Of a stretch of DNA of 64,000 bases, positions 1 through 29,200 are shown in pieces; position 1 is the first letter of the stretch; every line of letters starts with the position of its first letter. The notes under the pieces are model-generated. The model worked only from the letters and a program-made list of their open reading frames with translations. It did not search any database and was not told where the DNA came from. The stretch lies in NCBI GenBank assembly GCA_050273025.1, contig CP158635.1:19344001-19408000 (forward strand), written 5' to 3'. The stretch comes from Cenococcum geophilum (lineage: Eukaryota). A program made the position numbers and the translations under genes.

Positions 1-2667
1 AATAGGAAACTTAGGTTATATATTAACTATAAATAGTTAAATAGTATTACTTAAAAGAATAGGTATTCTTTACCCTTAATTAGTAAAATCTAAGACTAGA
101 TAGGTAATACGTAAATCTTTATAAAGATAGATCTAAGATAGGCGTATTATTAGATTAAAATTAAAAAAGGTAATAAATAGAAGGCAGCCTTTAGGTTAAG
201 AGAAGGACTATATAAACTATTAGTTATATAATTTAGATTAATAAATACACCTATAATATTTTAGAAAAGAATTAATAGTATATTAGAAGAACACCTTAAT
301 AAGTTTATTATAGTATACCTTAATAATATTATTATTTACTTAATAACTAAGGAAGAATACGGGGAATATATTAAATGGGTTTTAAAGAGACTATAGGAAG
401 AATAGATGCTAGTAGTAATTAAAAAATACAAGTTCTTTATAAGGAAGACTAATTTTATTAAATTTATTATTAAACTAGATTATATTAGTATAAACCTAAA
501 GAAGATTAAAGCTATATTAAGTTAGCAAGAACTAGAAAATATAATACAGTTAAGGTTATTTTTAGGGTTTTATAATTACTATTAAAGGTTTATAGTATAA
601 TAGTTAAAGAATATTAAACCTTTTACTAGACTTATAAAGAAAGAGAAACTATAGGTATAGGGAGATAAATAAAGGAAGTTGTTAAAGGAACTTAAGGAGT
701 TGTTTACCTAGGAGCTAATCCTTAAGATTTATTAACTAGAATTAGATATAGTTATAAAAATAAACGTATTAAACTATATACTAAGAGTATACTTACTATA
801 AAAGTATAAGGACGTATAGCACCTAGTAGTATACTATAGTAGGAAAATAACACTACTAGAGTTAAACTATAACGTCTATAATAAGAAGTTATTAGGTATA
901 GTTATAGTACTTAAGGAATAGAAAGCATTTTTATAAAGCGTAAAAAAATTATTTATAATTAAAATAGATTATAAGAACCTAATAGGGTTTCTAATAATAA
1001 AAGAACTTAATTATAGATAGGTTAGATAGGTAGAGATACTTATAGAATACTATTTTAAAATTTAGTATATTAAAGGAACTAAGAATATAAAAGTAGACGC
1101 ACTTAGTAAAAAAGCTAAACTATAAAATAATAAAAAAAACTATTAGGAGTAATACTACGTAAAGATAATAATAGGTTAATTAAATATAATTACCCTAAGC
1201 TAGTAGTAACTTAAGAGGATAATAAACTAGAAAAAGTCTATAAGACACTAAAAAGCTTTTAGGTATAAAGAATTTTTAAAATATAGCTAGAAGAATAGTT
1301 AGAGTATCTAGAGAAAGAAATATTATATAAATATAGAGAAGTAAAGTATATCCTAAAGAGCATAGTAGAGCATTTTATAGAAGATTTCTATAAGGGAATA
1401 ACTTAAAGACATAATAGAGTAATAGGCTTAGTATTAAGACTTTAAGAAGAATATATTATTAATAGAATTTAAAATATCGCGAGAAAAGTAATAAAGGAGT
1501 ATCTAGATTGCTAAAGAAATAAATTAATAAGATATAAGTTATATAGAGGACTATAACCTATTAAAATACTAGAGAGACTATAGGAGGTTATATTATAGGA
1601 CTTTATTACTAAGTTACTAAAGTTAAGAGATCCTATTACTAGATAAGATTATAATATAATCTTAGTAATAGTAGACAAGTTAATTAAGTAGGGCTACTTT
1701 ATAGCATATACAGAAGAAATATTAGCAGAGGATATTGCTAGAATCTATATTAAAGAAGTATTTATAAGATATAGAGTACTAAGTAAGATTATATTAGATA
1801 GGGATTTAAGATTTATAGCAGCATTTTAGGAGGTATTTTTGGCAGAATAAGGGGTTTAAGTAGTAACTTCTATTATATACCACTTATAGACAGACGGTTA
1901 GATAGAAAGATTAAATTAGATATTAGAGCAGTATCTAAAATATTATATTAATTATATACAGAATAATTAGGTATTGCTATTACTAGTTATACAGTTTATA
2001 TATAATGTAATACTATAGGAAGAAATAGGCATATTACTATTAAGGTAAATTATGGATATAAGCTAAGAATATTGTTATTATTATAGTAAGTAAAAAAAAA
2101 ATAAGTAGTATAGCTAAAGAAAGAATAAAGACGTTAATAAATCTTTATATAAACCTTATAGAATTAGTAAAGAAAGTATAAGAAAGGATAAAAAAGTACT
2201 ATAATACTAAGAGATCTAAGGGACTAGATCTTAAGGAGGGAAATAAAGTATGGCTACTATACAAAATTTTTAAGAGTTAACAACTAAGTAAGAAGTTAGA
2301 CTATATTAAACTAGAACCTTTTAAAATTATATAAAGGATTTTACTAGTTATATTTAAGTTAAACCTACTAGCTAAAATAAAAATTTACCCTATATAGTAT
2401 ATTATAATACTAAAACTAGTATATAGAAATATTAAGCTATTAGTTTATAAGGCAGATATATATAGAGGGTAAGAAGAAGATAAATAGTAAGTTTTAAAGA
2501 TTATTAATTATAAGGATATTAACAATAAAATATAGTATAAGGTTAAGTAGATAGGCTATACTAAGACTACTTAGGAACTACTAGAGAATTTAAAAAACGC
2601 TATAAGAAAAGTAGAGGAGTATTAGAAGAGATTAGGTTAAGTAGTATTAATAAAGAAGAATTACTAA
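1..2667 (+). pseudogene. Gypsy pol remnant (RT-RNaseH-integrase-chromodomain)
   Basis: Translates to RKLRLYINYK*LNSIT*KNRYSLPLI, VYLNNIIIY (YLDD), NYNVYNKKLLGIV (RNase H), YH L*TDG*IERLN (integrase) and a C-terminal chromodomain-like W*VLKII...YKVK*IGY. Many stops, consistent with RIP. Confidence 0.92.
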
Positions 2668-2669
2668 AG

Positions 2670-3272
2670 AATAAGTCACCTAAGGGGGACCTAGGAAGAG
2701 TCGTTACTAAACTACTTAGATTTATTTTCTTTCTAGCCTAAGGAAAATCCGTTTTTTTATTGCTAAGTTTTTATAAACCTTATTTTATAAGTTTCTACTC
2801 TTTAAAATAGACCTTTTTATAACCCTTTTTAAGATAGATTAACTAAGCGGACGCCATAAGATAAGACTTAAGGGCCCGTTACTAAGTATTAGTAGCCTCC
2901 TATTTAGCATTATAAGAATAATATAACTCCGCTAGGGTAACTAATAGTTTATTATCTAGCCGCGCAGCAGTAGATTAAATACAAAACTCTAAGATAAATT
3001 AGTTAAGAAATTAGATAACTATTAAGAGTAATAGATTGTATATATTTAGTATTAGAGATAGAGTAAATATTATAAGATAAATAAATATTCGCTTTAGTGC
3101 ACTCTAAGTAAGAGGACGGTTATTGTGAAGATAGGTTTATTAATATAATATAAACTAACCCCTCTTTTAAATAGCGAGAATATAAAAACGGTATAATCTT
3201 ACTAAGAGATAATATCGTAGTAATAGTACGAGCGCGACGAGCAGTTAAAGAAGAAGAAGAAGCTTTAGGTAT
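2670..3272 (-). pseudogene. Antisense accessory ORF in Gypsy 3' region with Zn2Cys6-like cysteine spacing (RIP-mutated)
   Basis: Minus strand from 3272 reads (M)PKASSSLTARRARTITILSLSKIIPFLYSRYLKEGLVYIILINLSSQ*PSSYLECTKANIYLSYN. Reverting TAT/TAC to TGT/TGC gives C-x2-C-x6-C-x13-C-x2-C-x8-C. 3' extent is approximate. Confidence 0.6.
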
Positions 3273-3380
3273 AATAAGTAATAATATTAACCAAATTAAT
3301 TAAATGGGTATTATACCTCTGGTAAGCAACTTAAAGATATTTAAAATCTTTAAGGACGAAGATAAAGAGGAGGGAGATAG

Positions 3381-3801
3381 TGTTATAAACGCTTTAAGTA
3401 TAATATTATAACTACTTAGAGAAGAGTTAGAAGAAGCTAGTTAATTAATATAGGTACGGTTTAGAATAGAGCTGATAGAACTATATAATAAGGAATAGTA
3501 GCTAAGGTTATATAACGTAATCTATATAATTTATAGGATCTATATAATCTAAAATAGAGTAAATAGAGTATACATACCTTACGTATAAAGGGGATTTCTT
3601 AGAAGTATAGTTATATATTTAAAGGACCATAGTCCCTACCTAAATAGTTCTCTCCTTTATAGTAAATCTTAGAATACAATTAGAGTTAATCTATTAGGCA
3701 ACCACTCTACTAAGTTATTATTACGTTGTTAACTATTCTATACCTATATACCTAGCCCATTAATAAGTCTACCGTAGTTCCTACTATAAGACTTTATTAC
3801 A
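3381..3801 (+). repeat. 3' LTR of Gypsy element A
   Basis: Starts TG directly after the PPT and ends CA at the junction with captain coding sequence. The partner LTR is not in the window. Confidence 0.75.
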
Positions 3802-5089
3802 AAATGGTTTAGCTATTTAGAGTCCTTACTAACTGGTAGAATATAGAAATATCGTCTAGTTTCCAATTTAGCTATAATAGTAGCTTATTATAACCTGGCT
3901 TAATATAGAGCTTACTTAGCTCCTTAGGAGATATAAGATTATATACTATAAACGCCTAATTAGTAAAAAGGAGACTAAGAAGGAAGATATAGGGGCTAAA
4001 GGTAAGGGATAGGGAAGGTATTTCTAGTTAGTAGGTAAGTATTAGTACTTATTTTATAACGTTATAAATAGTAGAAACTAAAAGGAAAGGATAGAACTTT
4101 AAAAACCTATATATCTTTTACACTAAGGTACTCCCTTATAAATTTAAATATAAATTTTAGTAAAATATAGTGGAGCCCACCCTCTAGGTCCTAGAGTAGC
4201 GTAACCCTAATATACTAATAGTAGAGATTAAGGAGGGCTTAAGGCCGATTTATAATAAAACTACCCAGTTATAAATATAGCTAGAGTAGTATCCTATAGC
4301 GTCTATAGGAGTACCTCTTTTTAGTCGTTATTAGGTTTATCTACAGCACTTTTATAAGGTCCTCTATATATATATAGGGCTTCTCTAGCCCTATCTTCTT
4401 TAAGCTATACTTTTTAGCTAGCTTTTTAAGCACCTAACCCCTAAAATTAGTTATATCTAAAGCCTGGGGTATATAATATCTAAAAGCAGTTAAAATACGC
4501 TCACCTTATATATATTCCTATTTAACCGACTATTAAGCTTTATACTAGTCGCTCTTTTATATATAAGGCGGTAGACCTTCTAGTATATCTTAAGGGAGCT
4601 TAATACCTTAGTTCTACAGCGCCTCCTTCTTTCTTTCCCTTAGTATTAATTAAGTAGCTAGTTAAAAAAAAGCTATAAAGATTGCAAAAAGAGATAGTTA
4701 TATAGGCCTTTTAAGGGTTCTTTCCTAAATACGCCCAGAACCTATACTATATATTAGCGCTATTAGGGTAGTATAACACGGTAGGGAAATGGAAAGAGAT
4801 AGGCTGCTTACTAATACCACTACTTTTTAATGCGGTTAAGTAGACGGGTACTACTAGGTTTATAATCCTTCTTTATATATTCTGCTTTATTAAACGTGTT
4901 AAGCTATTTAAGGTAGTACTTAGGCGAGTAGCCTTTATTAGCAAGAAGCTATACCCAATTATTATTGTTTTTATTACTATAGGTATTAATATTAGTTAAG
5001 TCTATACTAGAACTAGCTTTATTAGTTTTTAAATTTATATATTTACTCTCCTTAGACAAAGAGTATTTATTTAATAGGTATTATCGCAT
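3802..5089 (-). pseudogene. DUF3435 tyrosine recombinase (Starship 'captain'), 5' half, RIP-inactivated and interrupted by Gypsy A
   Basis: Spliced minus-strand translation gives DYKPSSTRLLNRIKK*W, intron 4742-4811, FWAYLGKNP...SSLKIY*KVYRLIYKRATSIKLNSRLNRNIYK, intron 4434-4504, VLKKLAKKYSL...EKPYIYIEDL...TTKKRYSYRRYRILL*LYL*LGSFIINRP*ALLNLYY*YIRVTLL*DLEGGLHYILLKFIFKFIREYLSVKD, then NTFPIP...SPYIFLLSLLFTN*AF. This matches the DUF3435 consensus as I know it (NRPxALL, RVTLLRDPEGGPH, NTFPIP). Start codon is approximate. Confidence 0.88.
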
Positions 5090-5349
5090 ATTACGTTATT
5101 ATTAGCAAATATATTAAAGAAAGGAGGGTTAGTATAATACTGCTATTAATAAATGCTTAAAGATAAGTAAGGTAGATAGTAAGTAGAATAGGTAGGTCTA
5201 ATAAAAGAAGAGAAGATAGATAGCTACTTATAGTTAATAAGTAAGGGTAAAGCTATTTTAAATATACTAGCCAGCCAAATTTAGAGGGGCCTATTTTAGC
5301 GCCTAATGGTAATAGAAGTAAAGACAGTTTGCTGAAGTCTAAAGGTATA

Positions 5350-5596
5350 TATTAGTATAACTTTTACAACGTGCAGAATATATATATCACAATGATATAT
5401 ACTATGCGGTGTTATAAATAGATGATTTTATTCTCTAAGATCTACGCGTCGCGAGAGGTAAGGCTTATCGCGTGTTCTCCTATGACCTCTGTCAACCAAT
5501 TACGATTTTCTATGCCCGGCATGGAAAATCGCCATTGGCTCGCTTACCACTAGCGCCTTAGCCGCCCTTACGATGTGTCTAACACTTTTAGCTACA
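5350..5596 (-). repeat. Copia 3' LTR
   Basis: Near-identical to 11114-11360, differing by transitions; T(G>A)TTAG...GCTACA ends. Confidence 0.93.
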
Positions 5597-5722
5597 CTAG
5601 GAATACTTTAGAAAATGTAAAGATCTGGTATCCTACAACTGTGCAATTTAAAAATCCATATACGCACTTCTCCTTCCTTCCTTCCTTGCTATTATAGTAT
5701 AGGTTATAATAGTACCAGGTAG

Positions 5723-5846
5723 TGTTATAGGTGCAGGTAGATTGCTATAGGTTGCCACAGATTGCCGTAGATTGCGGTTACGTGACACAGAGATTATATA
5801 CACCCTCTTTATTATATTCACACATTAATTAACTAAGTTACTAACA
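5723..5846 (+). repeat. Short LTR derivative related to the Gypsy D LTR, lying inside the Copia 3' end
   Basis: TGTTATAG...CTAACA. GTTGCCACAGATTGCCG-A-ATTGCGGT-ACGTGA and the terminal ~21 bp match the reverse complement of LTR 56071-56287. No TSD seen; left end uncertain. Confidence 0.55.
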
Positions 5847-5849
5847 TAG

Positions 5850-8800
5850 TGCGTTTTACCCATTCCACTATCTTTAACTTAATTCGGTTTATGTCGATAA
5901 GTCGCTTAAGGGCTAATAATGGTTTGCTTTTAGTTATAGCGTCCATAGGGTTACTGTCTCCGTTAATCCATTTAACTTCCGCTATTTCGCATCTTTTATA
6001 TAACTAGCGTAGGCATATAACATTAATTATAAGTCTCTTCTCTTATATAGTTCCTAGTTTAATAAGGCATTTATAAATTAACTTAGAATTAGTGCAAAGA
6101 ATAAGCAAGAGGTTGATATTAAGTTATAATTTAATTGTGGCCTTAATTGCAGCGCCAATATTAAAACTATAGGCCATAGCATATAATTTGGAGGCTAGTA
6201 CGCTTTTAGTGATTCTCTTACACTTAACTAAGGACTAGTGGACAATATTCGCCTTGTTTAATAAGTCTGCTAGTACTAGGATATATCCAATCTATAATAA
6301 GAGGTCTTTATTATTTATAAATGAGGAATCAGTAAATATAAGTAGTTAAAGTGTCTTTATATCAAGCTTAATAAAGCTTAAGCCTCTTATTGAGTTCTTA
6401 ATTTGCTACTAAATTCTCTTATTAAGTAGTTTTACGTCTTTCTCGTTAGGGTTAATTACCTAGGCAGCGTAGGATAAATTAAAAGAAGCTTTAGGCTGGC
6501 ATACGGACGCAATATAAGCTCCTCTTACTCGTTGGGCGATATATTAGTCCTTAGGTATAAGTGCTATACAAATAGTGCCTCTGGAACTGGTTATTATAGT
6601 AGCTTCCTTAATATTAATAAGGGTCAAGTTCTGGCATTAGCGCTTTTATATGAGCGTAATTATATAATCCTATTGTTGGATAATGCCTCCGTTAAACTTA
6701 ATTGGGTATTCCAGTATAAGTTGCTCGCGTTCTTTAGTTAAAAACTTAGCTTTTTTAATTTTCTCCTATTCCAAAGCTACAAAAACTAAGTTAGCTAGTA
6801 GGAGGGTATTATTAGTCTATAAACCAACTATTCCGAAACTTATAGTATTATTAAGGTAAAGTAGGTAGGGGTTATAAGTAGATTGGTTCATGTTTAGTTC
6901 TTTAATATAGTGGTTATAGTAAGTCTTAAACTAATAATTGCCTGCCTTAGGAATGCCGTATAAAGGTCTAACGACCTTTAGAATTGTGTCTTATAAGACT
7001 CTAAGCGCTGTACTAAGTTTAAGAGGTGCTTTAATATAAAAGTCTCGGTTTAGTTTTATAGTTAATTATATATAGGCCTATAAAATGTCTTATAAGTAGA
7101 GATATATACCATTGTTTTAAGTTATAGCTATAATGCAAAGAATAAGGCGTTAGCTAACTCGTTAAATTATAGGTAATTGGGTTAGTACGAGGTCTTTCTC
7201 TAGGTCGTTGTAGGCCTATATAACTAGTCTTAACTTCTTAAAGGCTTTATCAGTGCCGGGGTTCTTAATCTCGTTAACAAATCTAGAGTTAAATACTCTA
7301 TTGCCTTGTGGTATATCCTTAGGGTTAACTAATTTAAAAACTCCTTTCTTAAGCAATCCCTTAATCTCCTTCTGGCGTAATACTGTAAACTAATTAGGAT
7401 TTATAAGTTAATTATTATCCTCATCCTGCAGATAAATTAAGATATTTATAGTATTTGCTTTAATAGGGTACTTACATGGTCTACCTTTTCCATATTTAAC
7501 GGGTTAAGGTCTAGGCTTAGTTTAAGGTTAAGGTTTAGGCTTGGTTTAAGGTAAAAGTAGTTTAATATCGTCATCTTCTAGTTGCGTATCTTCTGTGATT
7601 TCGGGGTCTACTATATATAGTTTAACAACTATGCTGCGGAAGTTAGTAGGTCTATAGGGAAGTTGTATAGTATAGGTCTTATTTTTAATGCTAAGTAGGT
7701 TATACGGACCAGACCAGTAGCTAGGTTAGCCTATAGGTCCTTCTCTCTATACTAATATAGGTAAGTTAAGCGGTAGGTTATAAATCGCGGTTATCTTGGG
7801 TCTGTTACGCATATTAAGGGCATCTACTACTTAGCGCTTAGCTCTAAGCTTCTTAACTTCTTCTATAGCCTTTTTAAGAGCTACTACTTGTTTTATAACC
7901 GTAGGATTGGGTGCGTCGGATTCTACTATATATAGGTAAGCTCCGAATACTAACAAGGTAGGTATAAGACCATTAGGGCCTGCGGAGTTGTTGATTGCTT
8001 TAAAAGCCATTTATAAAGCCATGTCTTTGTTAATATCCGGTAGTTCCGCAATAATAATATGGTATATGCGACGGAGGGGGCTATAGTAACGTTCTACTAT
8101 TCTAACTAAATTATAGGCTTCGATAGGTACGCCTTTTGTAACTATTCCAAGTATTATAGCGTATTGTTTAAATTCTTTGCTTATGAAGTTCTTGCCTGCG
8201 TTGTATATAATAATATTAGGGGGTCCTAGGTATATGTTAATCCAGCACATTTGTAGTATATCCCATATATGCTTGGCGCTAATGCTTTATAGCCATCTGC
8301 TGGCTTAAAATCGTGTTCCTTTATTAATAATATATAGTAGAGGTGTGCCATTAATATACATAATATTAACCACGATTAAGTAGTTAAAATTAATATTATT
8401 ATATAAGGTAAATCTAAATCTACTAGGCGACTTTTTATATTTTTAATAATGGTGGCAGTAATATGTAAGATAGTCTAAAGTCTTACTATTAATATCGTGC
8501 CCTAAGCGTTCAAGTATTCATACAAGACGCTTAACTAAAGGGTAGCCGAAGCAACGATGTAGTCGTCTTAATTCAATGTTAGTTAAGTAGTAAGGGTTTT
8601 AATTAAATAATATAGTTAAGTAGTTACATAGGGATGTGTTTTAAAGGAGGAATAGATAGCTAAAGCGACGTATAACTAGTACTTCGCTCTAAGGGGTAAT
8701 TAGTATATTTTTCAGGTTGTTAAAGTACACTTATAGTTAATCTATATCTGCCAGGCAGAGTAAAAATAGGGTGTTAACTTTAATAATATGAAACTTAATT

Positions 8801-10761
8801 ATGCCAATTAGGGTAGTTACTTTAGTTAATTTAATTAATGAGGTTAATCTGATGCCGAATTGTACATTAATTATACCTTATGCGGTGGTATTAAGTTATA
8901 CACTAGTATTAAGTCTTTAGAATGCTAAAAATTGGCCATATCCTACTATAGATCGTTTAGATGCTCCTATATTAATTATTATACCTATAAAGTAGTCTGC
9001 AGTATAGCGGGACGTGGATATGGTTGCATTATAGGTAAAGGGGTCCTGGTTAGTTATAAGAGGTGTTATATTATCTATGGTTATAACCAAATAGCTAAAG
9101 GCTTTATTAGCTAGGGTAGCAGCTATAAAAGTTACTTTATGCTGTTCTACTTGGCCAAAAGAGGTATAGAAGTGGTTAATATCTAGTTAAGAGTTCTTGT
9201 CGGTTGCCTTATAATTTGTGTTAATAGTTAGTGCTTAGAAAGCTTCCTTAAGCTCTTCTTCTAAGTTAATATTGTTATCTTCGTAGTCTATAATATATTA
9301 ATTAAGTCATTTATTAAATCGGTTATTAAATTTACTAAACTTATCTCTATTAGCGGTTCTAAACTTAGCTTTAGACTCTTCTTATTCTTCTTAAATATGG
9401 TTTTATAATCGGCAGCCTTCCTTATTATATATAAAGCAACGTGGTTTATAATATAGAGAGAAATAAGGGCGGGTGCGGTTGCGGTTATAGTTTCGGTCGT
9501 AAGTTCGGTTTTAATATTAGTTATAGTTTTGATACTAATTATAGTTATTCTCCCTTCCAAAGTACCAACAATCTATGTAGTAAGCTTAAGTTTAAGCTTA
9601 CTCTAGGTTCTGTTTTTTATAAGCCATAATTAAGGACTATAGTTTATTAATAAGGGGGCCTAGTTCTTAAGGTGGGTCTAATACAGCGAATTAGTATACA
9701 TGAATTCCCTAGTAAGATGTAACAAGTTTATTAGTTAGGAATAGTATTATTTATAGTTCTAGGGTAAGGCCATGCTATAGTTGGGAGAGTGTATTAATTA
9801 ATATTTGGAGGCAATCGCTAGTTAATTTGTCTATATTCTTATCTATTATCGTCCTTAATAAGATTGCATTCTATTTACTAAGGTTCTTACGCTCTAAGCC
9901 AGGGCCTTTAAAGAAATTACGAAGGTGCCTATAAGCGTCTTTAAATAAGAGATTACTAAGTCCGCTGTTAAAGTACTAGTTTAAGGCTAGACCTATTAAT
10001 ATAATTAGTAAAGCTTTATTATAAGCCTCTTATAGAATATTAAATTGGTTACAGATGTTATAGAAGATAGTAAGTTTATAATTAAAGCTGCTATTTATAC
10101 CATTATATTTAAGTTCCTCTATATATATCTTTACTGCGTTAGAAATCTCTTTACCCTATCCTAATATAGTTAGCATCTATAGAAGGGGAGCGGTTTGGGG
10201 TTATAGGGTTACATACGGTAAAGGTCCTACTAGTATTCCTTTAGATAGTGGTAGGGTTATAATCTAGACACTTAATGGTTATTATAGTTGAAATAGGGTT
10301 ATGCGAACTATTAGGTCTTGTAATACTTTATAGTTAAGACCGCGCTTAAGTATATTGTTTATTTTATTTAACTAAAACCTATTTCTATTTAGCTCATCAT
10401 ATACCTTATCTAAGTTCTCTTAAGTCTAGGAATATTAGCGTTCTTCCTAGGTTAATTTAAATAAGAGTTGCGTATATATTATACGTTTCTCCTTTATATG
10501 TACGTATACTCCTCTATATCGTAGGAAGGTATACATGCTTTAAAGGTACTATATATTTACTTTTAAAAATATATTAATACTAAATGTTTTAAAATCGTCT
10601 TAGAAGGAGGACCAAAGTCTATTATCTATTAACTTGTACTTATTGTATTCCTATAACTTAAATAGTATAAAGTCTATAAGGTCTTTACTAGTTGCCGTTT
10701 ATATATTAATCCCGTTCCTCTATTATTCTATTTCTACCTTCTAGTCTATAGGTATAGCCAT
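5850..10761 (-). pseudogene. Copia gag-pol remnant
   Basis: Probable ATG at 10761; stop-riddled integrase, RT and RNase H motifs, ending ...KIVEWVKR near 5850. Confidence 0.85.
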
Positions 10762-11113
10762 CTTAAAAGAAATAAGGAAGATGCGTAGAATAGTTTAGGG
10801 GATAGTTTAAGTGGTTATTTAAGGGATAGTTTAAGTGGTGGTTAGGGTGGTCGCGTTTTTAGTATGGTCGCGTTCTTAACGTGGTTACGTTAACTACTGG
10901 TATAGTGGTCTGTCTCTAGTTAAGGTGGAGCATTAGACGTCTTCTAAATCCAGGGTAGATTTAAGGTATTTCTGGGTAAGGTGGAGCGTTAGACGTCTTC
11001 CAAATCCAAAGTACTTTAATTCTCTTTAACTGAAATAGGGCCTTTATAAGGTGGAGCGTAAACGTCTTTTAAGCAAGTGCGTATCTCCTAATCTATGCGC
11101 GCTCACTAATTAG

Positions 11114-11360
11114 TGTTAGTATAACTTTTATAACGTGCAGAATATATATATTATAATAATATGTACTATACGGTGTTATAGATAGATGATTTTATTCTCT
11201 AAGATCTACGCGTCGCAAGAGGTAAGGCTTATCGCGTGTTCTCCTGTGACCTCTGTTAACCAATCACGATTTTCTATGCCCGGCATGGAAAATCGCCATT
11301 AGCTCGCTTACCACTAGCGCCTTGGCCGCCCTCATGATGTGTCTAACACTTCTAGCTATA
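11114..11360 (-). repeat. Copia 5' LTR
   Basis: Pair of 5350-5596, followed by TSD GTATA. Confidence 0.93.
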
Positions 11361-11965
11361 GTATATAAGTATACGGCGTATCTAGGCGTACCTTAGCGTT
11401 AAAAAAGGCCAAGGGTGCCTTGCTCTATTGCTAACATTATTTGCGCCTGGGCTAGGCTAATACAGGCAATCCGGACAGCCTTAGCGCTTAGGCCACTAGC
11501 CGCAGGTTTTGGGGTTTTTTCGGGCAAATCGGCCTCAGAAAACGGCGTCACAAACCGCCAAAAACGGCGGCCAAGTCGCCGTCTAATTGTTTAAGGTAGG
11601 AAGCAAAATCCGTAAAATAGATATTGCGGATATCTAATTTATTTATTTATATAACGCGTTATTATTACCAAAAGTTAATACAATATTTTTAAGACTTAGG
11701 GCTTCTAAATGGTATAAATTTTATAATATAGCTATTGCTTAGTCCTAATATTAATTTCGTTAAAGTTAAAAAACGCGTTATTAAAAGCGTAAGCACATAT
11801 TATATCTTATTAAATGGTTTACTAATATAGACAAAACTATATAGATACATAGATATCTACTACTTAAAGCTATTACAACACCTAGTAGGTGCTGTAGTTA
11901 GGTCCTTCCTTAAAAATATCCTCCCTTAGCCCGGAGTGCTTCTGCTACTACTAGGTAAGCTTTAG

Positions 11966-12540
11966 GCAGAGCCTCGTGTAGAGCCTTAGTAGAGCTTCGT
12001 GTAGAGCTTCGTGCAGAGCTTCGTGCAGAGCTTTGTGTAGAGCCACGTGCAGCCGTGTAGACGTATAGATGTGCAGACGTGCAGACGTGTAGACGTGCGG
12101 ACGTGCAGACGTTTGTACAGGCGATTAATTGCAGAGATGTTTATAGAGACGATTGTATGGGCAATTGATTAATTGATTGTATGGGCGTTCGTACGGGCAT
12201 TCGTACGGGCGTTCGTACGGGTGATTATAGAACCTTCCTAGTATATTAGTGCTGTGTGTTAGTAGAGCTTTAGAGCTCTATATAGGGCTTTAAGTAGAGC
12301 TTTAAGCAGAGCTTTAAGTAGAGCTTCGAGCAGAGCTTTGTGTAGGGCTTCGAGCAGAGCTTCGAGCAGAGCTTCGAGCAGAGCTTCAAGCAGAGCTTTT
12401 ACGGAGCTTCGTGCGGAGCTTCGTGCAGAGGTTTTGTAGAGGTTTGGTAGAGCTCCGTGCAGAGCTCTGTGCAGGTCTCCCCCTAAGCTTCGTTCCGCAG
12501 AGCTCTCATAAAGCTCTACGGTTCTACGCAGACGCAGAGC
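11966..12540. repeat. Compound minisatellite (12-bp GCAGAGCTTCG(T/A), 8-bp GTGCAGAC and 12-bp TTCGTACGGGC(A/G) units)
   Basis: Directly visible tandem arrays at ~11966-12050, 12055-12112, 12180-12222 and 12285-12470. Confidence 0.85.
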
Positions 12541-12920
12541 CTATAACTCTATTAGGGTCTACACTATAACCTATAAAGGGCTATAAAGTAAATAAATTAA
12601 ATAGGTATATACCAGATGAAATACCTACTAGTTACGAAGAGGGCTTGTAACGTGGGCGTAAGCGTTTAGCATTAGTGTTTACTACGCGGCTTAGCGGTGC
12701 AGAGAGGTAGAATTGGGGCCTCTACGGTAACGAATTCCTCTTAATGTTGCGCGCGTATAAGGAGCTAAAGATCTCATAACTTATAGAGTAGGCTTTTCTC
12801 TATAATTTAGTGTAATTTTTATGTCGACAGGTATTGTGGGAGGGTAGATTAATTTTGTTAAAGTTAATAAGGTCTTCTTATAAACTGTGTTTAGGTTTTC
12901 TACAAATCTCGCCAAAGGGC

Positions 12921-13009
12921 CTCAGACTAAGAAAAACGATTACCGTCCTAAATCAGCTTAGCGGACGGTGCGGATATTCCTATATCCGCAATCGATTTCT
13001 TAGTCTGAG
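12921..13009. mobile_element. 89-bp foldback / MITE-like element
   Basis: Terminal inverted repeat CTCAGACTAAGAAA...TTTCTTAGTCTGAG, extendable through CGATT/AATCG, enclosing two internal hairpins (ACCGTCC/GGACGGT and GCGGATAT-TCCT-ATATCCGC). No TSD recognised. Confidence 0.55.
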
Positions 13010-13034
13010 CTTCTGAGGTAAGATTGTTACGTGA

Positions 13035-15958
13035 TTACAGCAGCTTAACCACCGCCCCGTACCCTCCCCCTGCAGCCGACGACAGCGCCGTCAGACCGTG
13101 CTTGTCCTTAGAGTTCACGTCGATGCCGTCCGCGCCGAGCAGCAGCTTAACCACCGCCTCGTTCCCACTCCCTGCCGCCCACGACAGCGCCGGCCAACCC
13201 TCGCCGTCCTTGGAGTTCACGTCGATGCCGTCCGCGCCGAGCAGCAGCTTAACCACCGCCTCGTTCCCAGTCCCTGCCGCCCACGACAGCGCCGGCCGAC
13301 CCTCACCGTCCTTGTAGTTCACGTCGATGCCGCCCGCGCCGAGCAGCAGCTTAACCATCGCCTCGTCCCCAATCATTGCGGCCCACGACAGCGCCGTCCA
13401 ACCCTCGCCGTCCTTGGAGTTCACGTCGATGCTGCCCGCGCCGAGCAGCAGCTTAACCATCGCCTCGTTCCCAGTCCCTGCCGCCCACCATAGCGCCGTC
13501 CGACCCTCGCCGTCCTTGGAGTTCACGTCGATGCCGTCCGCGCCGAGCAGCAGCTTAACCATCGCCTCTTTCCTAGTCGCTACGGCCCACCACAGCGTTG
13601 TCCGACCCTTGCCGTCCTTGGAGTTCACGTCGATGCCGTCCGCGCCGAGCAGCAGCTTAACCACCGCCTTGTGCCCATTCCCTGCGGCCCACGACAGCGC
13701 CGTCCGACCCTTGCCATCCTTGGAGTTCACGTCGATGCCGTCCGCGCCGAGCAGCAGCTTGACCGTGGCCTCTTGCCCATTCCCTGCGGCCCACGACAGC
13801 GCTGTCCGACCATACTCGCCCTCAGAATTCACGTTGACGCCGGCTATCGAAAGTGCCATCCGGCCAACATTTTCCTTGGAATTGGGATTATATCCAGGAT
13901 TAAAGAGAGCTATTATCGCTTCCCTTAGTCCGAAGTAGGCCGCAACGTGTAATCCTCGCATTTCCGCTGGCGTTGTCAGCATAAAGTAATCGTCAGCCAA
14001 CATCGCCTGACAAGAGGCGGACAGCTTAACTTCGCTCTTAAGAAAACTTAGAACTACCTCTTCTACCTCCAGTGAAGATGCACGAGTGTGGTATCCCCAA
14101 TTTCGGGCAGCGTAGTCGTAAAGGGTATACTGCTGCAATCGGGCCTTAAAATCTTCTTCGGTTGAATAGAAACCAGCAGCGAAAATATTAAACGACAGAT
14201 ACGTCAGGCAAATAGTTGCTATATCTACTTGCGCATTGGGGATTGAGAGTGTCCAGGTTCGCTCGAAGTATTCTTGTGTTGTGTAATGAATCCAGCGAAT
14301 AATTTGACTATTTTCATCGACGGTAACTAGGCCAGCGCAGGCAGAAACTATATCTTCAACCTCAGGAATAAAGTCTGTGTCTAGCTCTGCTGTGCCGATC
14401 TCAATAGTGCAGGCGTGTTGGAGCTCTGCAGTAGTAAGGGGTCTCTTTGTGTGCGTAACCCAAGACAGAACCCTTGTTGCAAGAGTTTGATATTCTTCCT
14501 CCTGGCCATTGATTCTTTTCATGGCTTGATCATACATGGCGTCCACTCCTTTAATTCCACGAGGCAGGTTCCGCAGAGCGCGTTTGATATCCCCAGGTGT
14601 TGGCTTGCTTATAAGGGAGTCCATATGCAGCTGTGCAAGGAGAAACCTAGCAAATATATTAATCTGGTTAATGTTATGTAATTGTGGGATAGTGCACCTA
14701 CATTCCATCTACGGCTTTTACTACCTCTTCTCCAACTGCATGCAGGAGATCTGGGTATTTTGAAATCCGTGATCGTAGGAGTTGGGGTATCCGCCCGTTG
14801 ACATATCTCAGGACGTCAGCTTCCTCAGCACGGATGGTTTTCGTTATACATGCTTCGAACTGTGACATAATTTCTGGAACAAAACGAGATGTTGCAAAGA
14901 TGTTTACTTCAGCCTGCACCTGAAGATTGAATACCTCTCCCAGAAACTTTCTACGCTCTTCGCTGGAGACGTGGCATTCGTCTAAAGCGTCAATAATTAT
15001 AAATACCTTTGAATATAACTGGGTAGTAGATTGCAACACTTTTACAACATCGTTAAACGAAGGACGGGTTCCTTTAGTCACATGGCGCTCATGGAGGTTC
15101 TTAACATCCATAGGTACCGAAGGCTGTTTCTGGGAGAGCTGTTTTAATAGACTTGAAAGTAAAGCCTCAGCACTCTGCTCTTGCTGCCGCTGGTAGTTAC
15201 AATATAGGTATGCGATTCCGACGTCGGTGTTATTGAACTCGGCCCAGAGATAATCAACCACAATGGATGTTATGATCGTCTTGCCTGCTCCTGGTATGCC
15301 TGGGCAGAACATCGTCTGCTTGCTTGGGCTGAGCCACCCCTGGAATTCGCTCGAGTTTATGAGCCATAACCCAGTCCCCTCCTGTCGCCGACCAATGAAG
15401 TCGCTTTGCTGAGTAGCGTAGTCGGTCGGTGAGAGCCAATCCATGATAGCCCGACGCTCTTGATTATCTTGGTGATGTACTAACTTATCCACACCTTCTC
15501 TGGTAAGCCGGCTATTAAACGTATTTAGAAAATTAACGTTCGAGACAATGCGACCCCGGAGCTCTCGGATGTCATCGGGCTCCCATTTGAGTTTCTTCCA
15601 CACCCTTTTCGTCCTTTTGCTAGCGTTCATAGGCCCTGAATCTAGTTCGCCATACTTACCTAGCGTTTTCTCCAATTCGTGGAGAACACTACGACATCCG
15701 TGAGCGATGCCGTCCAGCTCTATCTTTTCCTTGTTAGAAAGATCTCGTTCCGAGAGGGCGACTTCGACATCTTCAACGACAATCGAGAGACTTCTAACCC
15801 TGTTACCAGGTGGTCAGCATCGGCTAACAATCCCTTTAGAGAACTTACTCATCGGAAATAGCCTTGAATTGACTCGGAGCACCAACAAATTCCTTTCGAA
15901 TCTTGCTGGCAAGCTGGCAAACGGCGACAAAGTCGCCTACACTGAAACCAAAGCTCAT
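13035..15958 (-). CDS. Fungal NLR-like protein: HeLo-like/SesA-type N-terminal domain + NACHT + ankyrin repeats (~939 aa; exons 15958-15849, 15799-14702, 14646-13035)
   Basis: Starts MSFGFSVGDFVAVCQLASKIRKEF. Two GT-AG introns (15800-15848, 14647-14701) join the ORF-track pieces in frame. Walker A GIPGAGKT, Walker B IIIDALDE, VDGMFLLAQLH, C-terminal ankyrins. Confidence 0.92.
13038..13812 (-). repeat. Array of ~8 highly similar 102-bp (34-aa) ankyrin repeat units
   Basis: G(R/W)(T/P)AL(S/W)WAAxxGxEAxVKLLLGADGIDVNSKDG(K/E) repeated; 7 full units plus a terminal partial unit. Confidence 0.95.
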
Positions 15959-20242: not shown

Positions 20243-23200
20243 TCAGTTCACAGCCTCCGCCATTATTTGCTCTCCTTCATCTAGCATGTTCATAATCAGT
20301 CTCAGATTGCCCACCATCTCTCGTGCCTGTCCAACTAGCAGCAGCTTCTCCGCATTCGCTGGCAGGCCTAGGTACGTCGGCGGCTCGCGTTCTGGCAGTG
20401 CGTTGACCCACTTCATAAAATCCTGCCAGCCAGTTGTGGTGGGTAGCGTCAAGCCCGCATCCTTGACAATGTGGAAGCTCTCGTCGAATGCTGCCGGCAT
20501 CATGACGCTCTCAACGAGAGCCCGCAGCGAGTTGAAATCACCCTCGTCGTCGATCTTGCCACCGTACATCTCTGTCATCAGTGTGCATAGCATGGCCCAC
20601 GGTATGTTCTTAGGCGCGATGTTGGTTCGACCATGCGCCACCGAGTCTATCCATGTGTCAATAATGAAGCTACAGCATTCATACTGTAAAACAAGTTAGC
20701 AATACTATTCGTACTGAGTAAGGGAGTATATAAGAAACTTACGTCACTGTCATTGAACTCCCAGAAACCCTTCCATCCCAAGCTTGGGGCATAGCGTAGC
20801 CGTTCCTGGACAACGGCATGGAGGAAGGATAGCAGGAGATAGACGCGTGCCTTCTCAACTGGCTGCTTAGTTGCCTTCTCCGCCAGCGATGAAAGCGAAT
20901 CCTTCATGTTAGCCCGGATGCCGGCTGGTTGCTCGTACATCAAAACACGCGAAGCCCGAAGGAGATTGACTGGAATCTTCGGGCTGGACTCCATAGACAG
21001 AAAAAGTCTGAAGTCAGGATGAGGCTTGAGCGAGTCGATTCGTTTTTCCAGGCTCTGCAACCAAGTTGGTGCAAGATGGACGTTCTTAATAAGCACCCAG
21101 GATCCCGTAGCGGCTGCATTACTGATAGCTTTATCTGCACTTGCCACCCCTTCATTCGAACCCATGGCAATATTCGTACAGCTCGCGCGCTCGCGTTCCA
21201 CTAGATTATCGACTTTGTAACTTGCGTCGAAGCCAGGGTTGGAACTTAGTGCAACCGGCGTGGTGGCGGTGACTTGTTTAACGATCTCGCCCAAATCTCC
21301 ACTGGCATCCAACAATCCTTTGCCGAAGACTTCGGTGACGAAACGCTCAACAGCAGGCACGAAACGATCCACACGGAAAATTTTGACGAGAATTAGAGCC
21401 CGAAGCTGCTGGTCAAATTTCCCCGTCTCCGCAGGCCATACTCGAGGAACACATTGCTCTGCCAGCTCTTCAGTGAAGAGCGTGTTCCATGCCGATGCGT
21501 CCAATCCTTCAAGCTCGTCCTTGAACAGTGGAAGTTTTGATGCACGCGCCATTGCCTCATCTTTCCGGTCCACTTCCGTTGACACATCAACTCCTTCAGT
21601 ATCCTTGTCGAGGATAATGTCAATAAGCCCCTTGTCCATCTTGTAGGGCGCTGCTTGTACTAAAAGCATAGCTAGTGTGACGCGGTCCTTTTGCAAAAGG
21701 GATAGTGAGGTACGGCGATAGGTGTCCGCAAAGAGTTCGCCCAAGATATGATCAATGCGCGCAGTATGGTTACTTGCTTGTCCTGATTTCTTGACACGTT
21801 GGAGAACTGCGTCGAAAATTCCCGTGAAATACTGAAGGGAGAATTGGTAGAAGTGGTTGATGTGATGAAGTTGCTCCAATACCGCGAAGATTGCAGAGCA
21901 GGACCGAGCAACAACGGTATACTGGAGCGTGATGTTCTCAACTTCGGTCATAACGCCTTCAGTTTCAGCCACCTTGGCGGTAATCTCTGCGGCTTCCTTC
22001 TTAAGGGTCTCAAGAGTTTCAATCACACGATCATCGTCAAGGATGTTGCCGCGAGACTCATTCAGCGCTTGAAGCAGTCGTTTTTCGAGTTGTCGCAGAT
22101 GGACGCTGAATTCTCCTTGCATCTTGATGAGATTTGACCGTCGCTCATCCACGTCGGGTCGTTCAGACTTCAAAACTTCATTGAGCGTCTGCGTCTGTAA
22201 GCTGCTCTGGGTGACGGTGAAATTCACAAAGGTGGTGCGACTGCAAATATCAGGTGCGAATGTGGCCGAGGGATCCCGCGTAGATAGGAAGAGCTTGAAA
22301 GAAGGCGAGAAATCGATCTCCTGCTTGCCTAATTGTATAAGCACACGGCCACCAGTCTTTTGATATTCTTTGTTGAGGACGTGGTTCAGGATAGGGTCCA
22401 AGTGCTCGGCATCCTGAATAAGAATTGGATTACCAAATCGAAGCGAGCTTTCAAGTTGCTTGGTGAAAGAATCGTCCAGGAAACTTGTGACTGTAAGTCG
22501 ACGATCCTTACATTCGTTCTGCAAGAACTCTGTGACTCGGCCCGAGGGATCGATAATCAATGGATATCGATTGAACCTCTTTAGGATGATTGCATTCTCA
22601 GTACACAAATCGTCAACTGGCAATGAATTGTCTTGCCAGCTTAGTCTTTCATCAGCTGTCGAAAGGTATTCAGTGACCGGGTTAAGAGTCTTATAGCTGA
22701 TTCCAGAGAGAGAAAGGTGATGAAGCCAATCATCCATCATGGTCTTCCGGTATTGCTGGTCATAGTAGCCTCCGTATGCGATGAATGCTGCGGCGACGAG
22801 AACATCCCCGACAATAGTGTTAATTTGAGTCTCAAATGACCGACTACTTTCCTCCCATCTAGATCTCTCGGAAGAAAGACTGTCCAGAAGGCGTACACTT
22901 CGATCGACCTTGAACTGAACTCTAGCCATCTCCGATTTGATGGCTTGTGTTTCGCTGATGAGAGCTGCGTATTCAGTCTTGTACCTTGAGATGCTGTCCT
23001 CGAGAGCCTTGATGATATCTTCGGTCTCTTGCGCTTCCTTCTTAGTCTTTTGAGCTTCCGCTTCGAGGTGGCCTACTTCTTCCCGTAGAGGCCCAACCCG
23101 ATCCAAGATTTCAGAAAAGTTGACTTGAGCATGAACCCATTGAACGAGTGGACCGCATGCCTTGCTAGCGCGGTTGACCCTGTCGAATGTGAAATCCTCC

Positions 23201-26200
23201 TTCGAGAGATATTCATTTTGCATCCTCGTACGATGATTCCGGGTCATTTGCCTCTCGTTGTCATAGTTGACTATGCTAGCAATGAAGTCGTCGCGCCTGA
23301 CAATAGCCAGTATTCCTTTCCAACTGTCGAACTTGTGGCCAAGTAAGGTGCAGACTGCCTCGAGAGCCAACTTCACGCCAGCCGGTGGGTTTTGCATTGA
23401 TCGAACTTCTGTGAGATGTTGCCTCTTAATGTTCTGGACACTCTTCTGCGCCTCAAGAACAGCAGGTTCTGCGTTTGCCAGATCGTTCATCACAACCTGT
23501 CTTCTCAACGCAATTTCCTTCTCCGATTTTTCCAGAAATGCCTGGATTCCCAAGGATGTCGTTTTGCTTTGTTCAGCTTCTCGTTGGTCGGCAATCATTC
23601 GCTGCAGTTTTTCATTGGCTTCTGCGTCCTTCTTTTCCAATTGGCCCTGCTTTTCCGCCAGGCTCTTGCGCAAATCTCGAACTTTATCCACAGTCTCTCG
23701 CAACTTCTCTAATCCTACGTTAAGATGTCTCTGTTGTTCCTCAAGATCCTCGCGCTTCTCGTTATATAGCTTGACGTACTGTGCAACAAAGTCAAGGAAA
23801 TGCCGGGGAGTGAGGTAGGTAACCTTGTTCTGTTGCTTCTGTAATCTCTTGTTGAAATAATGCAAGGAGAAATGGATGTAGACCATTGCATTCACAACTG
23901 CTTCACGGTGTGATGGTGGAAGGTTCAATCCACGATGAGCTACGGGAATAGTATCCGGAGCAACAAAGTTGGCTCTATCCAAGTCGACAGATTGTGTTAA
24001 CTCAGAGCCGACTTGGAAGAGAGCTTGATCAGACCAGTCGCCGAACCAGTTAAGAACGCATCTGTTAAACAAGGCAGGGCTCGTTGCCGCTTTCGACGAT
24101 AATCCTTCTTCTGGTGGGTTCATCGTGAAAACAACGTGTAGATTTTTCACGATCTGTTGTGTGAACCACTTATAAAGCTCCTCCTGCGAGTCCAGGAGCA
24201 AACCTTGCCTCTGGGCTCCCTCCTTGCATGATGTCATAAGTGAAGCATACTCATCTCCTTCGAACAATCCCGGAACTTCGGCGTTGGCAAGCAAAGTATT
24301 CATGCGTTCCAGGAAACCTGAGTCGAGAACGTTGGATTCGTCCATAATAAAACAAATTTTCTCACCCTTGCAACCACACCGTCGAAGCACATTTCGCAGA
24401 TCCTCATCGAAGTCTTCGGCTGAGTATTTTCCGTGAACTTTAATCTGATAAACTTTGAGTCCGTTCATCCATGCCACAAAGCGGGACAAGGTTGTCTTTC
24501 CACTTCCACTGACACCGATTAAGATAAGATGTCCTTGAGGCTGACGGAATACACGATCGATCCGTAAGACGTGCTCTAGAACATCATTGAAAAGGATCAA
24601 GGGCACATCGACCTCTTCCTCGCAGAAGGTTTTTAGTCGAGCTTTGACAAAGTCTCGAAGTTGGTCACGATCAACCGGGACGTAGTTCTTAGAAAGCCAA
24701 TTCGAGAACAGGATAGGACCGCCAAGCGCTTGTTGTTCGTCGATGGTCGGGAAATGCTCCAAAGCAACCCGGTGGACGCATTCCTCAGTCCACTTACGCT
24801 CTTCTTCAGCAATGAGGCGATCTTGGAAAAGTCGAAGAGCTTCGTGCGCCCAAATCCTGACCAGTCCTTCGAGAGTTAAGCTTTCGAGTGGTCTAATGGC
24901 TTCGTAAACGCCACGTACCCATCTAGTAAGCTCTCTAGGAGAATAGACGTAGTGTGGTTGAATCTCCGGGGTAAACCTCTTTTGTGATTCGGCGTAGAAT
25001 TGAACCATCGCCTTTGTGAACGGTTCAGAATAACCACGCAGGGCTGGAAGGATTTTGAGAACGGCGCTATTGAAGGTTCCGTAGATTTGAAGAAGCGACT
25101 GTTCACCAGGATAGTCGACCATTATCAAGGGCGAGTGACGCAAAAATCTGAGGGCCATAGGGGTACGGCCCGCGTCTGTGGGTGGATTGCAAGCACCGAC
25201 AAATTGAATGCGGTCTAGAGTAACCCAGGTCTTATCAGTAGTTCTCCAGAATCCGTTCTGTTCAACGAGCTGGCGCAGGAACGAGATAGCCCGCTGAGTC
25301 CCATATTTGTCAGGAGCTGGCAAGTTGATTTCGTCACAGAAAATTACCAGCCAGCGGCCGATCTGCGTAGGTGTAAGAACTACACCGTTCAGGGTTTTCT
25401 TGTATTCACAGTACTGCTCGAAGGTCTTGATGAGCAGATCTGGAGTTGTCGCACTTGAGAAATTCAACCCCACAACTTCCATATTGGGTAGCTTTCGCAG
25501 AGCACTGAACAGAGTCATGGTTTTACCTGATCCGGGGGGACCACATAACAGAAGTGGCTTATGCTCTGCGAGCCATGAATATAGGACATCCTCATGCCGG
25601 ACTGTGTCTAGTGTGGGAATGACTACGTCTGTTTGGGTGATTGAATGGGTATTGACCTCGATATTTGGAACTTGGGATTGCCATAAAGTCCAGTCTGTCT
25701 TTGGTAGAGACACGTCGAAATCGATGAGTGAGGTCCCTTCGTTGAGGATGGGTATATCCACTGTGGCAAGACCAGCAATAAGGTCTCCAAATGCTTTGCG
25801 GTCAACTAACGGGCAGTCTCCAACCAACGACCATACAAGGGCAAGCAATAATTTCTTTGAGAGATAAGATTCAATCTGAGAGTCTTCCAAGGGGAAATCC
25901 TGATGCTGGACATTGTATTCTAGAACGGACCTGCACGTTTTATTGAGGAGTGAGAAAAGAGTGTTGAGTGCACGGATGTCCGTGAAGTCCATAATGTGGC
26001 GAAATTTGCGAGAGACACTCAGTGCTTTCTCGATAAACCGTTCCTCGTTCAGTTGAACTTGTAGGAAATCAGCGACCTGTCCCTGGACCACAAGAGCCTT
26101 TTGCGAGAGTTGACCTGGTGCGACAGAGTCATCCTCCAGATCTTCGAATGGAACCGCGCGAAGATTTTGGATGTAGTTGGAAATCATCATTTCTGTTGCG

Positions 26201-29200
26201 ACCGTATCATCGCTGAACCAGACCATGCCACATCGGCTGACAGTAGCAAGAGTAGCATATTTTAGGGTCTCGACTTCAAACATTATCCGTATGTTAGGGG
26301 GCAGATTCAGACGCTCGCCGTTTGGTAATGTCAAAAGTTTATTGTCATCTAGGACGCTGTTCAAATTCTCGACCCATTCTGGATCAACATCGCCATCAAA
26401 GACAATCCAATGTCGTTTAGTGTCTTCTCCACGGAGGTTGTCGACAATTTTTCTCAGAATGCTTGTGAAGAGCCCGTCGGTCCATTCCCTAGTTGTGCTG
26501 TCTAAGCTGCCATAAAGGTTTTCTTTTGACATGACCTTCGGGTCAATAACGTGACAAACTCCTTCAACTCCTTCGACACGCTGTAGCGCTGAGAGCAAAG
26601 TTTTCCACGCAGTGGACTTGCCAGATCCGGATGACCCAACCATCATAACGCCGTGATGAAGAGATTGTATCTGGTAGAGCTGCAATATTTTCGTCATCCA
26701 GGCCTCGCTCACAATGAGCCTCGACTCGGCGGCAGCATCGCGGATGGCTTGCTCTAATCTATCAAGAGGCGCAGGAACGTATTCTACACCTGGGAAGGAT
26801 TCTGCTTGTATATCTTTCATGATTTCGACGTCGGAACGGATTAGCTTTGGGGCCATCGTTTCACGTAAGCTTTGAACTATGATCTGTGGTTCGATGGTCA
26901 CTTCATCAGGTAGCCCTTGGCCCTGGCTAGCGATGCGGGCGCGCTTCAGTCCGCCAGAGCTGACGAGGACACTCTTTAAGGCACGCAAACCAAAGTCGTA
27001 GTGGGCCTGGTTCGACAAGCCGACTGAGCACTTATCAAAGAATGGCACAACTTGTTTGGACAACTCCTTAGCGCGAGAGAACCCTTGAGAGTAGAGCATG
27101 ACTTCTGCAATAAGCTCTTTATCAGGTTTTGACATTGCGACGCTCCTGAAAAGCTTCTTCAAGTTGTCAGGTAGGTTGGATCTGCCAGCGTACCCAGGAT
27201 TCATAGTGATGAAGATTCCGGTATGGGCGTTGACTCGAAGTTGACGACCGATGAGCTCGATCTGAGATTTTTCTTCCCCAATGCCCTTTCTCAGACCAAG
27301 TTGGATATTCTGTACCTGTTGGGAGACGGCTGACAAGATTCGTTCCTCGAGGCGGTTAAATTCGTCGAAGCAGCCCCATGCGCCCACTTGACATATACCG
27401 AGGAAAATGCGACCCATCGCTTGGAAGTCGAAAGTGTCATCGCAACAGAACACCAGAGTGAAGCGACCAAGTTGCACACCCAAAGCCTTGACAGACTCTG
27501 TCTTCCCCGTGCCGGCCGGACCGTAGGGAGAACCTCCAAGCCGTTGACATAATGCTTGTGTCAATGTTAAGAAGCAGCGATCAGTTAAAGGTGTGCGGAC
27601 GAGACGCTCTGCTACACCAAGATACTCGAAGCCATAGTCGAGGGTTGCATTCGCCATCTTGATTTGCAGTCGCTGTAATAATTCCCTCTCTGGCTCATAT
27701 ACATAACGCATCGAGAGAAGCCACATATGATGGGTCACAGAATCAGCTCCGGCTTGTCTTAGGCTGTTGATGACATCTCGTTGATGAACAAACTCTGTGA
27801 TGAGATGTTCGCACTTCCTCCTGTGAATTGGCTCGAGATCTCCTAGAACTGATGTGGCAAGGAGCTTGAGGATGCCGACATGCTGGTTATATAAACTAGA
27901 TAGACATGCACCCCCGTCACTCAGAGATGCTTCTACAGATGCTGTCCAACACACTTGAGTTGCTAGGACCACGATCTGGGCCGGATATTTCGTGACATAG
28001 GAGTCAAAAGCCGCGGGGTCCATAGACTCAGCAATGAGGAGAGCCTTGAATTCTTCGGCTGCCTCATGAAGGAGTTCCGCGAGAGTGTTTTTCATATTGA
28101 GTTCGAGTGCGGCTAGCCACTCGTTGACTCGAGGAGTCTTGGCCAAAGAGATATCTTTTTTCAGCATGACCTGCTCTCCCTCCTTTGAGGTGAATCCAAG
28201 TATAGTTGAATTGTCATCGGTTACGAGGCCAGATATTCCAGCAAACATTTTCCTCAAATGCTTTGCAATCCGAAGAGTGTCATTATTGTTGCCAATAATC
28301 TCAAGAAGATCCTCGTCACCGACAAAGTAGAATCGCGGAAAGGACACTCTTTCTCGCTCCAGGTATTCACCGAGTGCCTTTTGGATCTTGTTGAGCAGCT
28401 CGGCCAGACGTTCTAAGGATTTCTGAACGCCAGATATGGCAAGCACATCAAGGACAAATGGTGATCGAGAAACCTTCTTCATCACAGAGAGAAATTCAGA
28501 GTTGATATTCTGGAAACGGGAGGACTCCATTGGCAGGAGGTGTTTGATGTCAGCATTTCCGGTGAAAACGCCCTCGAGGTATACCCATTGACGCTGCACG
28601 TCTATCCAGACATCGAAGAGGACATGAACGCGGTTCAGCTTCTCCTCCCATGACGATGCGTCCTCCTCGAATTCTTTGTAGTACGGTGAGTGTCTCATTG
28701 CCTGAAGAGAATTCAGGTTCTCACTGCATTTGGCGAAGAGGTCGTCCCAGCCACGAATGAGTCGGCATTTGTTTTGATAGTTAACCAGATCCAGAGAGTA
28801 GTTTTGCCAGGTTTCACGCACTTGCTTGAGAAACTCTTCAAGAGCCATCTCACCCTGAGCTTGCGCAATTACATCGCGAATAACAACTTCACTTGGGCCT
28901 AGCTGAAGATCCCAAACATCTCCAAGTGTTAAGGAGAGCTGAGAATACCTCTTGGTGGGCTTCAGCTGCTTAAAAATCTTGACCCAATGTCGCTCCCTCA
29001 CTGCCTCTGACCGCATCTCCCCTAGTAAAGGGTTTACTTTCAGCAGTTGACGTAAAACATTCTGAACATGCTCGAACGCAGCGTACTGGCGCATGCGGCT
29101 CGGCATCTCTTTTGTCATTTTGAGAAGATTGTCCAAAGATTGTCGTAACTTGCGAGGCTGTATGCTAGTCCAGAGAGTGTCTCGGAGATCATTAAGGCTG

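Follow-up and report, generated by a model that had tools for sequence, protein, structure and literature searches.

The window analysed here is a 64,000-nucleotide stretch of the Cenococcum geophilum genome (C1:19344001-19408000; C1, C3, C6 and C7 are contigs of a 7-contig, 178-Mb genome). It holds the first part of a DUF3435 tyrosine recombinase gene, the captain of what is probably a Starship transposon running leftwards out of the window. Upstream of the element stand a host repeat and a NACHT-ankyrin gene. Repeat-induced point mutation (RIP), long terminal repeats (LTRs) and terminal inverted repeats (TIRs) recur among the features at this end, which are as follows.

1..3801, plus strand: right part of Gypsy-type element A, with RVT_1 and an LTR at 3379-3801; the element ends at about C1:19339918
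3802..5089, minus strand: 5' portion of the DUF3435 captain killed by RIP, with exons 5089-4812, 4741-4505, 4433-4111 and 4023-3802
C1:19339915-19339052 and from C1:19318981, left of the window: remaining captain pieces, behind two Gypsy-type insertions
5090..5349, minus strand: captain leader, which in other copies runs on directly into 11361-11600
5350..11360, minus strand: LTR retroelement inside the leader, with 243-bp LTRs (16 transitions, 0 transversions) and a GTATA duplication
11361..11600, minus strand: left (5') terminal segment of the Starship, with a sharp boundary and a different flank in each of the 17 copies shown
11578..11592, minus strand: left inverted-repeat arm AAACAATTAGACGGC, the reverse complement of the right-end arm at C1 ~19208218-19208232
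11599..11602, minus strand: left direct repeat TTCC, where most of the other copies, and several of the empty host copies, have TTAC/WWAC
11601..13022, minus strand: larger half of a split, multi-copy 1.55-kb TIR element, whose last ~115 bp lie at C1:19194765-19194878
13023..13029, minus strand: TAACAAT, the target duplication of the host TIR element, which recurs past the other half, 162 kb away
13035..15813, minus strand: NACHT-ankyrin gene, non-RIPped, outside the Starship and upstream of its left end

A preliminary description of this stretch had picked out a spliced, stop-riddled minus-strand frame with two motifs, and the letters read as it claimed: NRP*ALLNLYY*YIRVTLL*DLEGG (R at 4247) and NTFPIP (about 4022-4005), with no stop-free frame of at least 120 aa within 1-13,034. 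Its assignment to the DUF3435 captains was borne out when the frame, with stops read as X, was searched: 4058-4520 matched PF11917 (DUF3435) with an E-value of 2.6e-12 and 46.8 bits (curated cut-off, 25.8 bits), two of the six captain-region pieces scanned giving a match. The least-mutated copy in the genome (C3:7968445-7970908) served as the reference for the gene model. Mapped on it, the start codon of the window captain falls exactly at 5089 and its introns at 4811-4742, 4504-4434 and 4110-4024, the third donor having changed from GT to AT; all captain exons align with a 731-aa homologue. Nineteen stops were counted among 352 aligned codons. When the four pieces of the gene were pooled, 633 of 3145 aligned bases differed from the reference, and 610 of the 633 were C>T or G>A (96% RIP-type; CpA 317, CpG 215), so that the window and C3 captains are less than 1% apart outside RIP-type changes. 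In the C3 protein we take R234, K271, Y391, R394 and Y428 to be candidates for the catalytic pentad R-K-H/Y-R-Y, by motif position and not by structural alignment; of the catalytic candidates, the R is kept in the window copy and the K reads R.

The captain is cut at 3801/3802 by the LTR element with the RVT_1 domain. Its 3' half was found beyond that element, where the preliminary description had placed it, with the target duplication AAATG/AAAAG (one mismatch). Inactivation had been ascribed to RIP and to Gypsy-type element A; both were seen, and the account needs widening, as a second, nested copy of element A also interrupts the gene. RIP alone or the insertions alone are enough to kill the captain, in whichever order they came. 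Directly behind the captain lies the tail of a second captain-like zinc-finger domain (C1:19318474-19318265, L023; L-labels denote the genome loci compared).

When 3802-5352 was used as the query, 52 matches were returned, of which 18 were long, lay elsewhere and had 78-89% identity. The nearest named homologues of the captain are from Dothideomycetes, and those at 68-72% are fam05. Five of the six top homologues checked appear in the available part of the starfish tables, all as fam05 (Prometheus; PMC11162782), and the captain shares a 50% cluster with navis010 captains. In a quick tree of 26 proteins, with support from the Shimodaira-Hasegawa-like approximate likelihood ratio test (SH-aLRT), the C3 captain was sister to the cluster of lenflu1_KAF2676861.1 (SH-aLRT 100). 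This placement beside Prometheus captains agrees with the captain identity proposed earlier. Genome-wide, at least 165 DUF3435 exon matches were counted (342 candidates, 100 scored). Other DUF3435 families contribute dozens of copies, which match positions 86-211 and 212-418 of the profile; there are also a group without introns (L002, L004, L008) and a DUF3435 exon free of stops at C6:8404499-8405095.

The Starship starts at 11,600, and not just right of the captain as first supposed, since a 6-kb LTR element has inserted into the leader. That element, presumably Copia-like by its motifs, gave no match to Pfam in its pol region. With it discounted, the captain ATG lies about 0.5 kb from the left end, as in the C3 copy, and the captain is the first gene. 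A search with the left end returned 21 matches, 18 of them longer than 150 bp. The far half of the split host element lies on the same strand as the near half and abuts the insertion point exactly: of the empty copy L090, bases 1384-1498 correspond to the far half and bases 1499-2985 to the near half. Ten of the 11 other host-repeat copies examined run straight through the insertion point, where TTAC is found in the empty copies L090, L088 and L081. Because the halves of the split TIR element and its TAACAAT duplication still match, both Starship ends are fixed; the halves abut and share the outer duplication, and the insertion is therefore 160,722 bp long. The suggestion that the element extends leftwards beyond the window, with cargo, was thus correct, its far end lying 160.7 kb away. 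The locus lies between the NACHT-ankyrin gene and a GH15 gene.

Direct repeats were found at both boundaries, TTCC at the left (one mismatch) and TTAC at the right, together with 15-bp terminal inverted arms, offset by a spacer at the left end. If both ends were joined, the arms would flank an 8-bp spacer; inverted arms around a short spacer are the layout of tyrosine recombinase sites. A joined-end sequence (circle or tandem) had 0 matches in the assembly. At the right terminus the last bases are TTTAC, and 22 of 28 matches stop at the same base.

The sequence next to the far host half was considered as the true right end and rejected: it comes from the middle part of a high-copy retroelement, which continues in 24 of 24 other copies shown, and this led us to recognise an inversion. 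An inversion covers the last 13.35 kb of the Starship; the crossover was reciprocal and lost no bases, and it took place between the right-end repeat and a TAAC site of the nested retroelement, which share three bases. The junctions lie at C1:19194879 and C1:19208234. The retroelement is split, its other part resuming at C1:19208226 in the opposite orientation; at this junction the plus strand ends in GCCATCTGATTGTTTAC, the reverse complement of the left arm. Independently of this, the 2.1-kb right subterminal sequence that the family shares is split here: 385 bp have kept the orientation of the element, and 1.76 kb are inverted. In-silico reversion of the 13.35 kb restored the retroelement and brought TTAC next to the host half; both junctions are the reciprocal products of one crossover. 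With its ends inverted in this way, the Starship would probably no longer be able to excise cleanly.

At least 18 left ends of the family occur in this genome, and nearly all copies are RIP-dead. Of these 18, seven have a same-strand right end 66-128 kb downstream, two have an inverted one and nine have none near; about a dozen right ends are also without a nearby partner. The flanks have an A+T content of 0.56-0.89 at 17 left ends and 0.67-0.94 at 22 right ends, and many were identified as repeats. When the orphan ends were compared as cross-chromosome partners, only the already paired C7 copy was continuous among 374 flank joins (17 x 22), which is a weak test with about 0.9 Mb compared. The possibility that orphan left ends are right-end deletions near the captain was rejected, as no join was supported in the first 4 kb of 16 copies.

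In the C3 copy the two ends are in the right order, at a distance of 78.5 kb (C3:7967949-8046467). Its captain has four GT-AG introns, and the spliced frame is open over 727 aa, with 72% identity to a protein from Clohesyomyces. All four introns were joined without extra letters in two of the three RNA runs, from two studies, in contigs that give no expression level, and 20 of 24 listed runs contain most words of the C3 copy. The open cargo frames of this copy include two protein kinases, fungal kinases, a DUF7025 plus AAA frame and a BIR frame, about 4 kb of the copy falling outside the comparison. An open, spliced and transcribed captain is thus found in a two-ended 78.5-kb copy beside about twenty dead copies, and we regard the C3 copy as a candidate active Starship that may have escaped RIP.

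Within the 234 kb compared, 73.6 kb of the window's Starship are unrepeated. Its cargo list is incomplete, five hand-picked RIPped pieces having been scanned against Pfam; two of the five matched, revealing a RIPped protein kinase and a DUF7025 gene. A FunK1-like region shows 72% similarity to an open fungal kinase gene carried by the C3 copy. An open HET frame of 624 aa (PF06985, E-value 1.8e-34; best relative 57%) sits inside a TA-flanked element with 159-bp TIRs, which is missing at the same point in two other copies. This HET-bearing element, with its HET gene un-RIPped, spans C1:19254110-19317938 (L095, L023), 63.8 kb through nested LTR elements, and its TIR has one weak match elsewhere (C7:8778889). 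Two further un-RIPped segments were observed in the Starship: a small and likely young element with 194-bp direct repeats 98% alike (C1:19245322-19246837, L096), and an island with an open 268-aa frame that had no Pfam match (C1:19268335-19269138, L094). Along the 160-kb backbone of this element, the arms of other copies align in order, and the C3 copy carries shared modules in a different order. By what is known of Starship biology, the element would have arrived by captain-catalysed recombination, and RIP may have struck the family because it had become multi-copy.

These data point to a derelict Starship of the Prometheus family, 160.7 kb long (C1:19194879-19355600, minus strand), a reading to which we give a probability of about 0.85. 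Several observations weigh against it. The left direct repeat is TTCC, not TTAC, and the next target base is G, against T in 19 of 22 right flanks. The empty site rests on paralogous repeats within the genome, not on another strain. The joined flanks strictly form a continuous repeat in only one of the seven same-strand pairs, with weaker support for two more. Finally, the third RNA run (X21) gave no reads for the C3 captain, which is no test with 12% of the run sampled.

A second copy with an inverted right end has its left end at C3:20667130, and its inversion measures 46.5 kb. The hybrid junction predicted from both repeats had a single match in 178 Mb (C3:20752096-20752128), 46.5 kb past that copy's inverted end; the reversed control had 0. 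The 1.5 kb on each side of this junction match the expected repeats at 87-89%. The inversion junctions lie at C3:20705605 and C3:20752111, and the crossover shares 5 bp. Inverted right ends are therefore present in two of the nine two-ended copies.

We consider it probable that a captain of this family catalysed both inversions, either in cis before its death or in trans from an intact copy, possibly one such as the transcribed copy on C3. In this model, the captain would recombine the right end with a target-like site nearby, so that the DNA between them becomes inverted. Captain action in trans has been published for HhpA, in the part of the source available (PMC10104507). In both cases the right direct repeat is the exact position of the outer breakpoint; the inner breakpoint contains an AC core oriented as in targets, and no base was lost or gained. 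Since target-like words are common (15-18 per kb, both strands), the inner breakpoint alone says little, and the evidence is that the outer breakpoint lies on the direct repeat twice. Two points count against this reading of the inversions. With 3-5 bp shared at the crossovers, microhomology repair may have been at work, and the junctions are those of the assembly.

The strongest rival, which we judge unlikely, is host break repair by microhomology, following a break or nick either at the right end, possibly made by the captain itself, or at random. The three bases shared in the window's copy and the five in the C3 copy fit such repair, as do the frequency of target-like words and the lack of a shared AC core in the two of eight internal junctions between this element and the C3 element for which both parents are available. 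A random break, however, could land anywhere past the end, whereas the outer breakpoint was at the right direct repeat in two of two cases; the target orientation of the AC cores and the exact conservation of bases also argue against this rival. Assembly artefacts in repeat-rich DNA are a far less probable explanation. All four junctions do lie within repeats and were read from the assembly, but these repeats are 84-92% alike, the hybrids are reciprocal and base-exact at overlaps of 3-5 bp, and the same pattern occurs on two contigs. Least credible of all is a compact (3-5 kb) captain-only transposon in unrelated flanking DNA: the 3.17-kb captain module is the only part common to all copies, which diverge right after it, but no terminus follows the module, the arms continue in order along the 160-kb element, seven copies share a right end 66-128 kb downstream, and the host repeat resumes only 160.7 kb away. 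The split of the host TIR element over 160.7 kb likewise rejects a 3.2-kb element.

Captain catalysis of the two inversions would also open a further possibility, which we hold as doubtful: one-ended captain recombination, in which the right end acts alone. One round would produce flipped and trapped ends like those of the two copies, and a second round, past the old boundary, would restore orientation and enclose host DNA, a gain of cargo. One hint is that three different arms depart from the captain module at a single base, just before the second zinc-finger tail, where the reverse reading is WTAC|T. Counting against cargo capture by two inversions, other internal junctions are without such a core, and none of the copies shown carries captured host DNA. 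A captain origin of the internal shuffling between this element and the C3 element was rejected, as neither of the two junctions with both parents has an AC core, the other six of the eight having one parent only. If true, one-ended recombination would be a direct route for Starships to gain and shuffle cargo. The two inversions, base-exact and anchored on the right direct repeat, implicate the captain and supply exact test substrates, and right-end inversions would explain both the immobility of an element and the failure of boundary finders to detect it. In the literature covered, which left subscription papers outside, no report was found of a captain-made terminal inversion or of a cargo-capture mechanism.

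Beyond the Starship, the NACHT-ankyrin stop codon is followed after 12 bp by the host 1.55-kb TIR element. This element is non-autonomous, contains tandem arrays of 12 and 8 bp and has a duplication of 7-8 bp; a 20-bp subterminal word of it has 228 exact genome matches. Further along the window, a dynein heavy chain gene (20647-33048, minus strand) has a 4133-aa open frame. A second RIPped block (39000-64000) contains the LTR pairs 42671/48842 and 56071/61812, and an enoyl-CoA hydratase frame (53695-54231) lies in a small un-RIPped island.

Starships are usually low-copy, with Voyager at 0-4 per isolate, and the cause of rearrangements near them is given as unconfirmed in the available parts of these sources (PMC9156397, PMC12289983, PMC11848846, PMC12910237, 10.1101/2024.06.28.601215, 10.64898/2026.01.28.702382). 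Two of them describe Starships as hotspots of inversion and translocation and, as far as the accessible text goes, suggest ectopic recombination with the cause unconfirmed (PMC9156397, PMC12289983). As in HEPHAESTUS and PEGASUS, the captain here is a DUF3435 gene placed first, the core is TTAC and RIP destroys multi-copy elements; the empty site also fits TTAC(N7)A (available sections of PMC10104507). For PEGASUS, one copy has a post-insertion inversion, a likeness that extends to the accessible text, breakpoint position aside (PMC10104507). HEPHAESTUS differs in its captain family, which is fam02 and not fam05, and the nearest labelled homologues place our element outside the Hephaestus family although its target fits TTAC(N7)A. 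Sanctuary with ToxTA resembles it in a head of about 3-4 kb and a short tail common to haplotypes around a variable middle, and in a TA-flanked non-autonomous TIR element bearing a gene inside the Starship, here the HET gene (PMC12506042, in the part covered). Sanctuary differs in its direct repeat (ATWHCT/ATACCT); no effector gene was seen in our element, and the searched text on Sanctuary mentions no inversion (PMC12506042). A known Prometheus Starship, bipsor1_s03178 (navis010, Bipolaris sorokiniana), has direct repeats ttacta/tttacta and arms tcttaaacaatcta/taattgtttacta that match this element in the available part of the source; both have AT-rich, repeat-borne targets, and bipsor1_s03178 measures 187 kb (PMC11162782). 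Unlike it, the family described here is present in one genome with 18 or more left ends, nearly all of them in RIP-dead copies, and shows two inverted right ends and other cargo. The element in the window is thus a new, fully delimited and dead member of a known Starship family.
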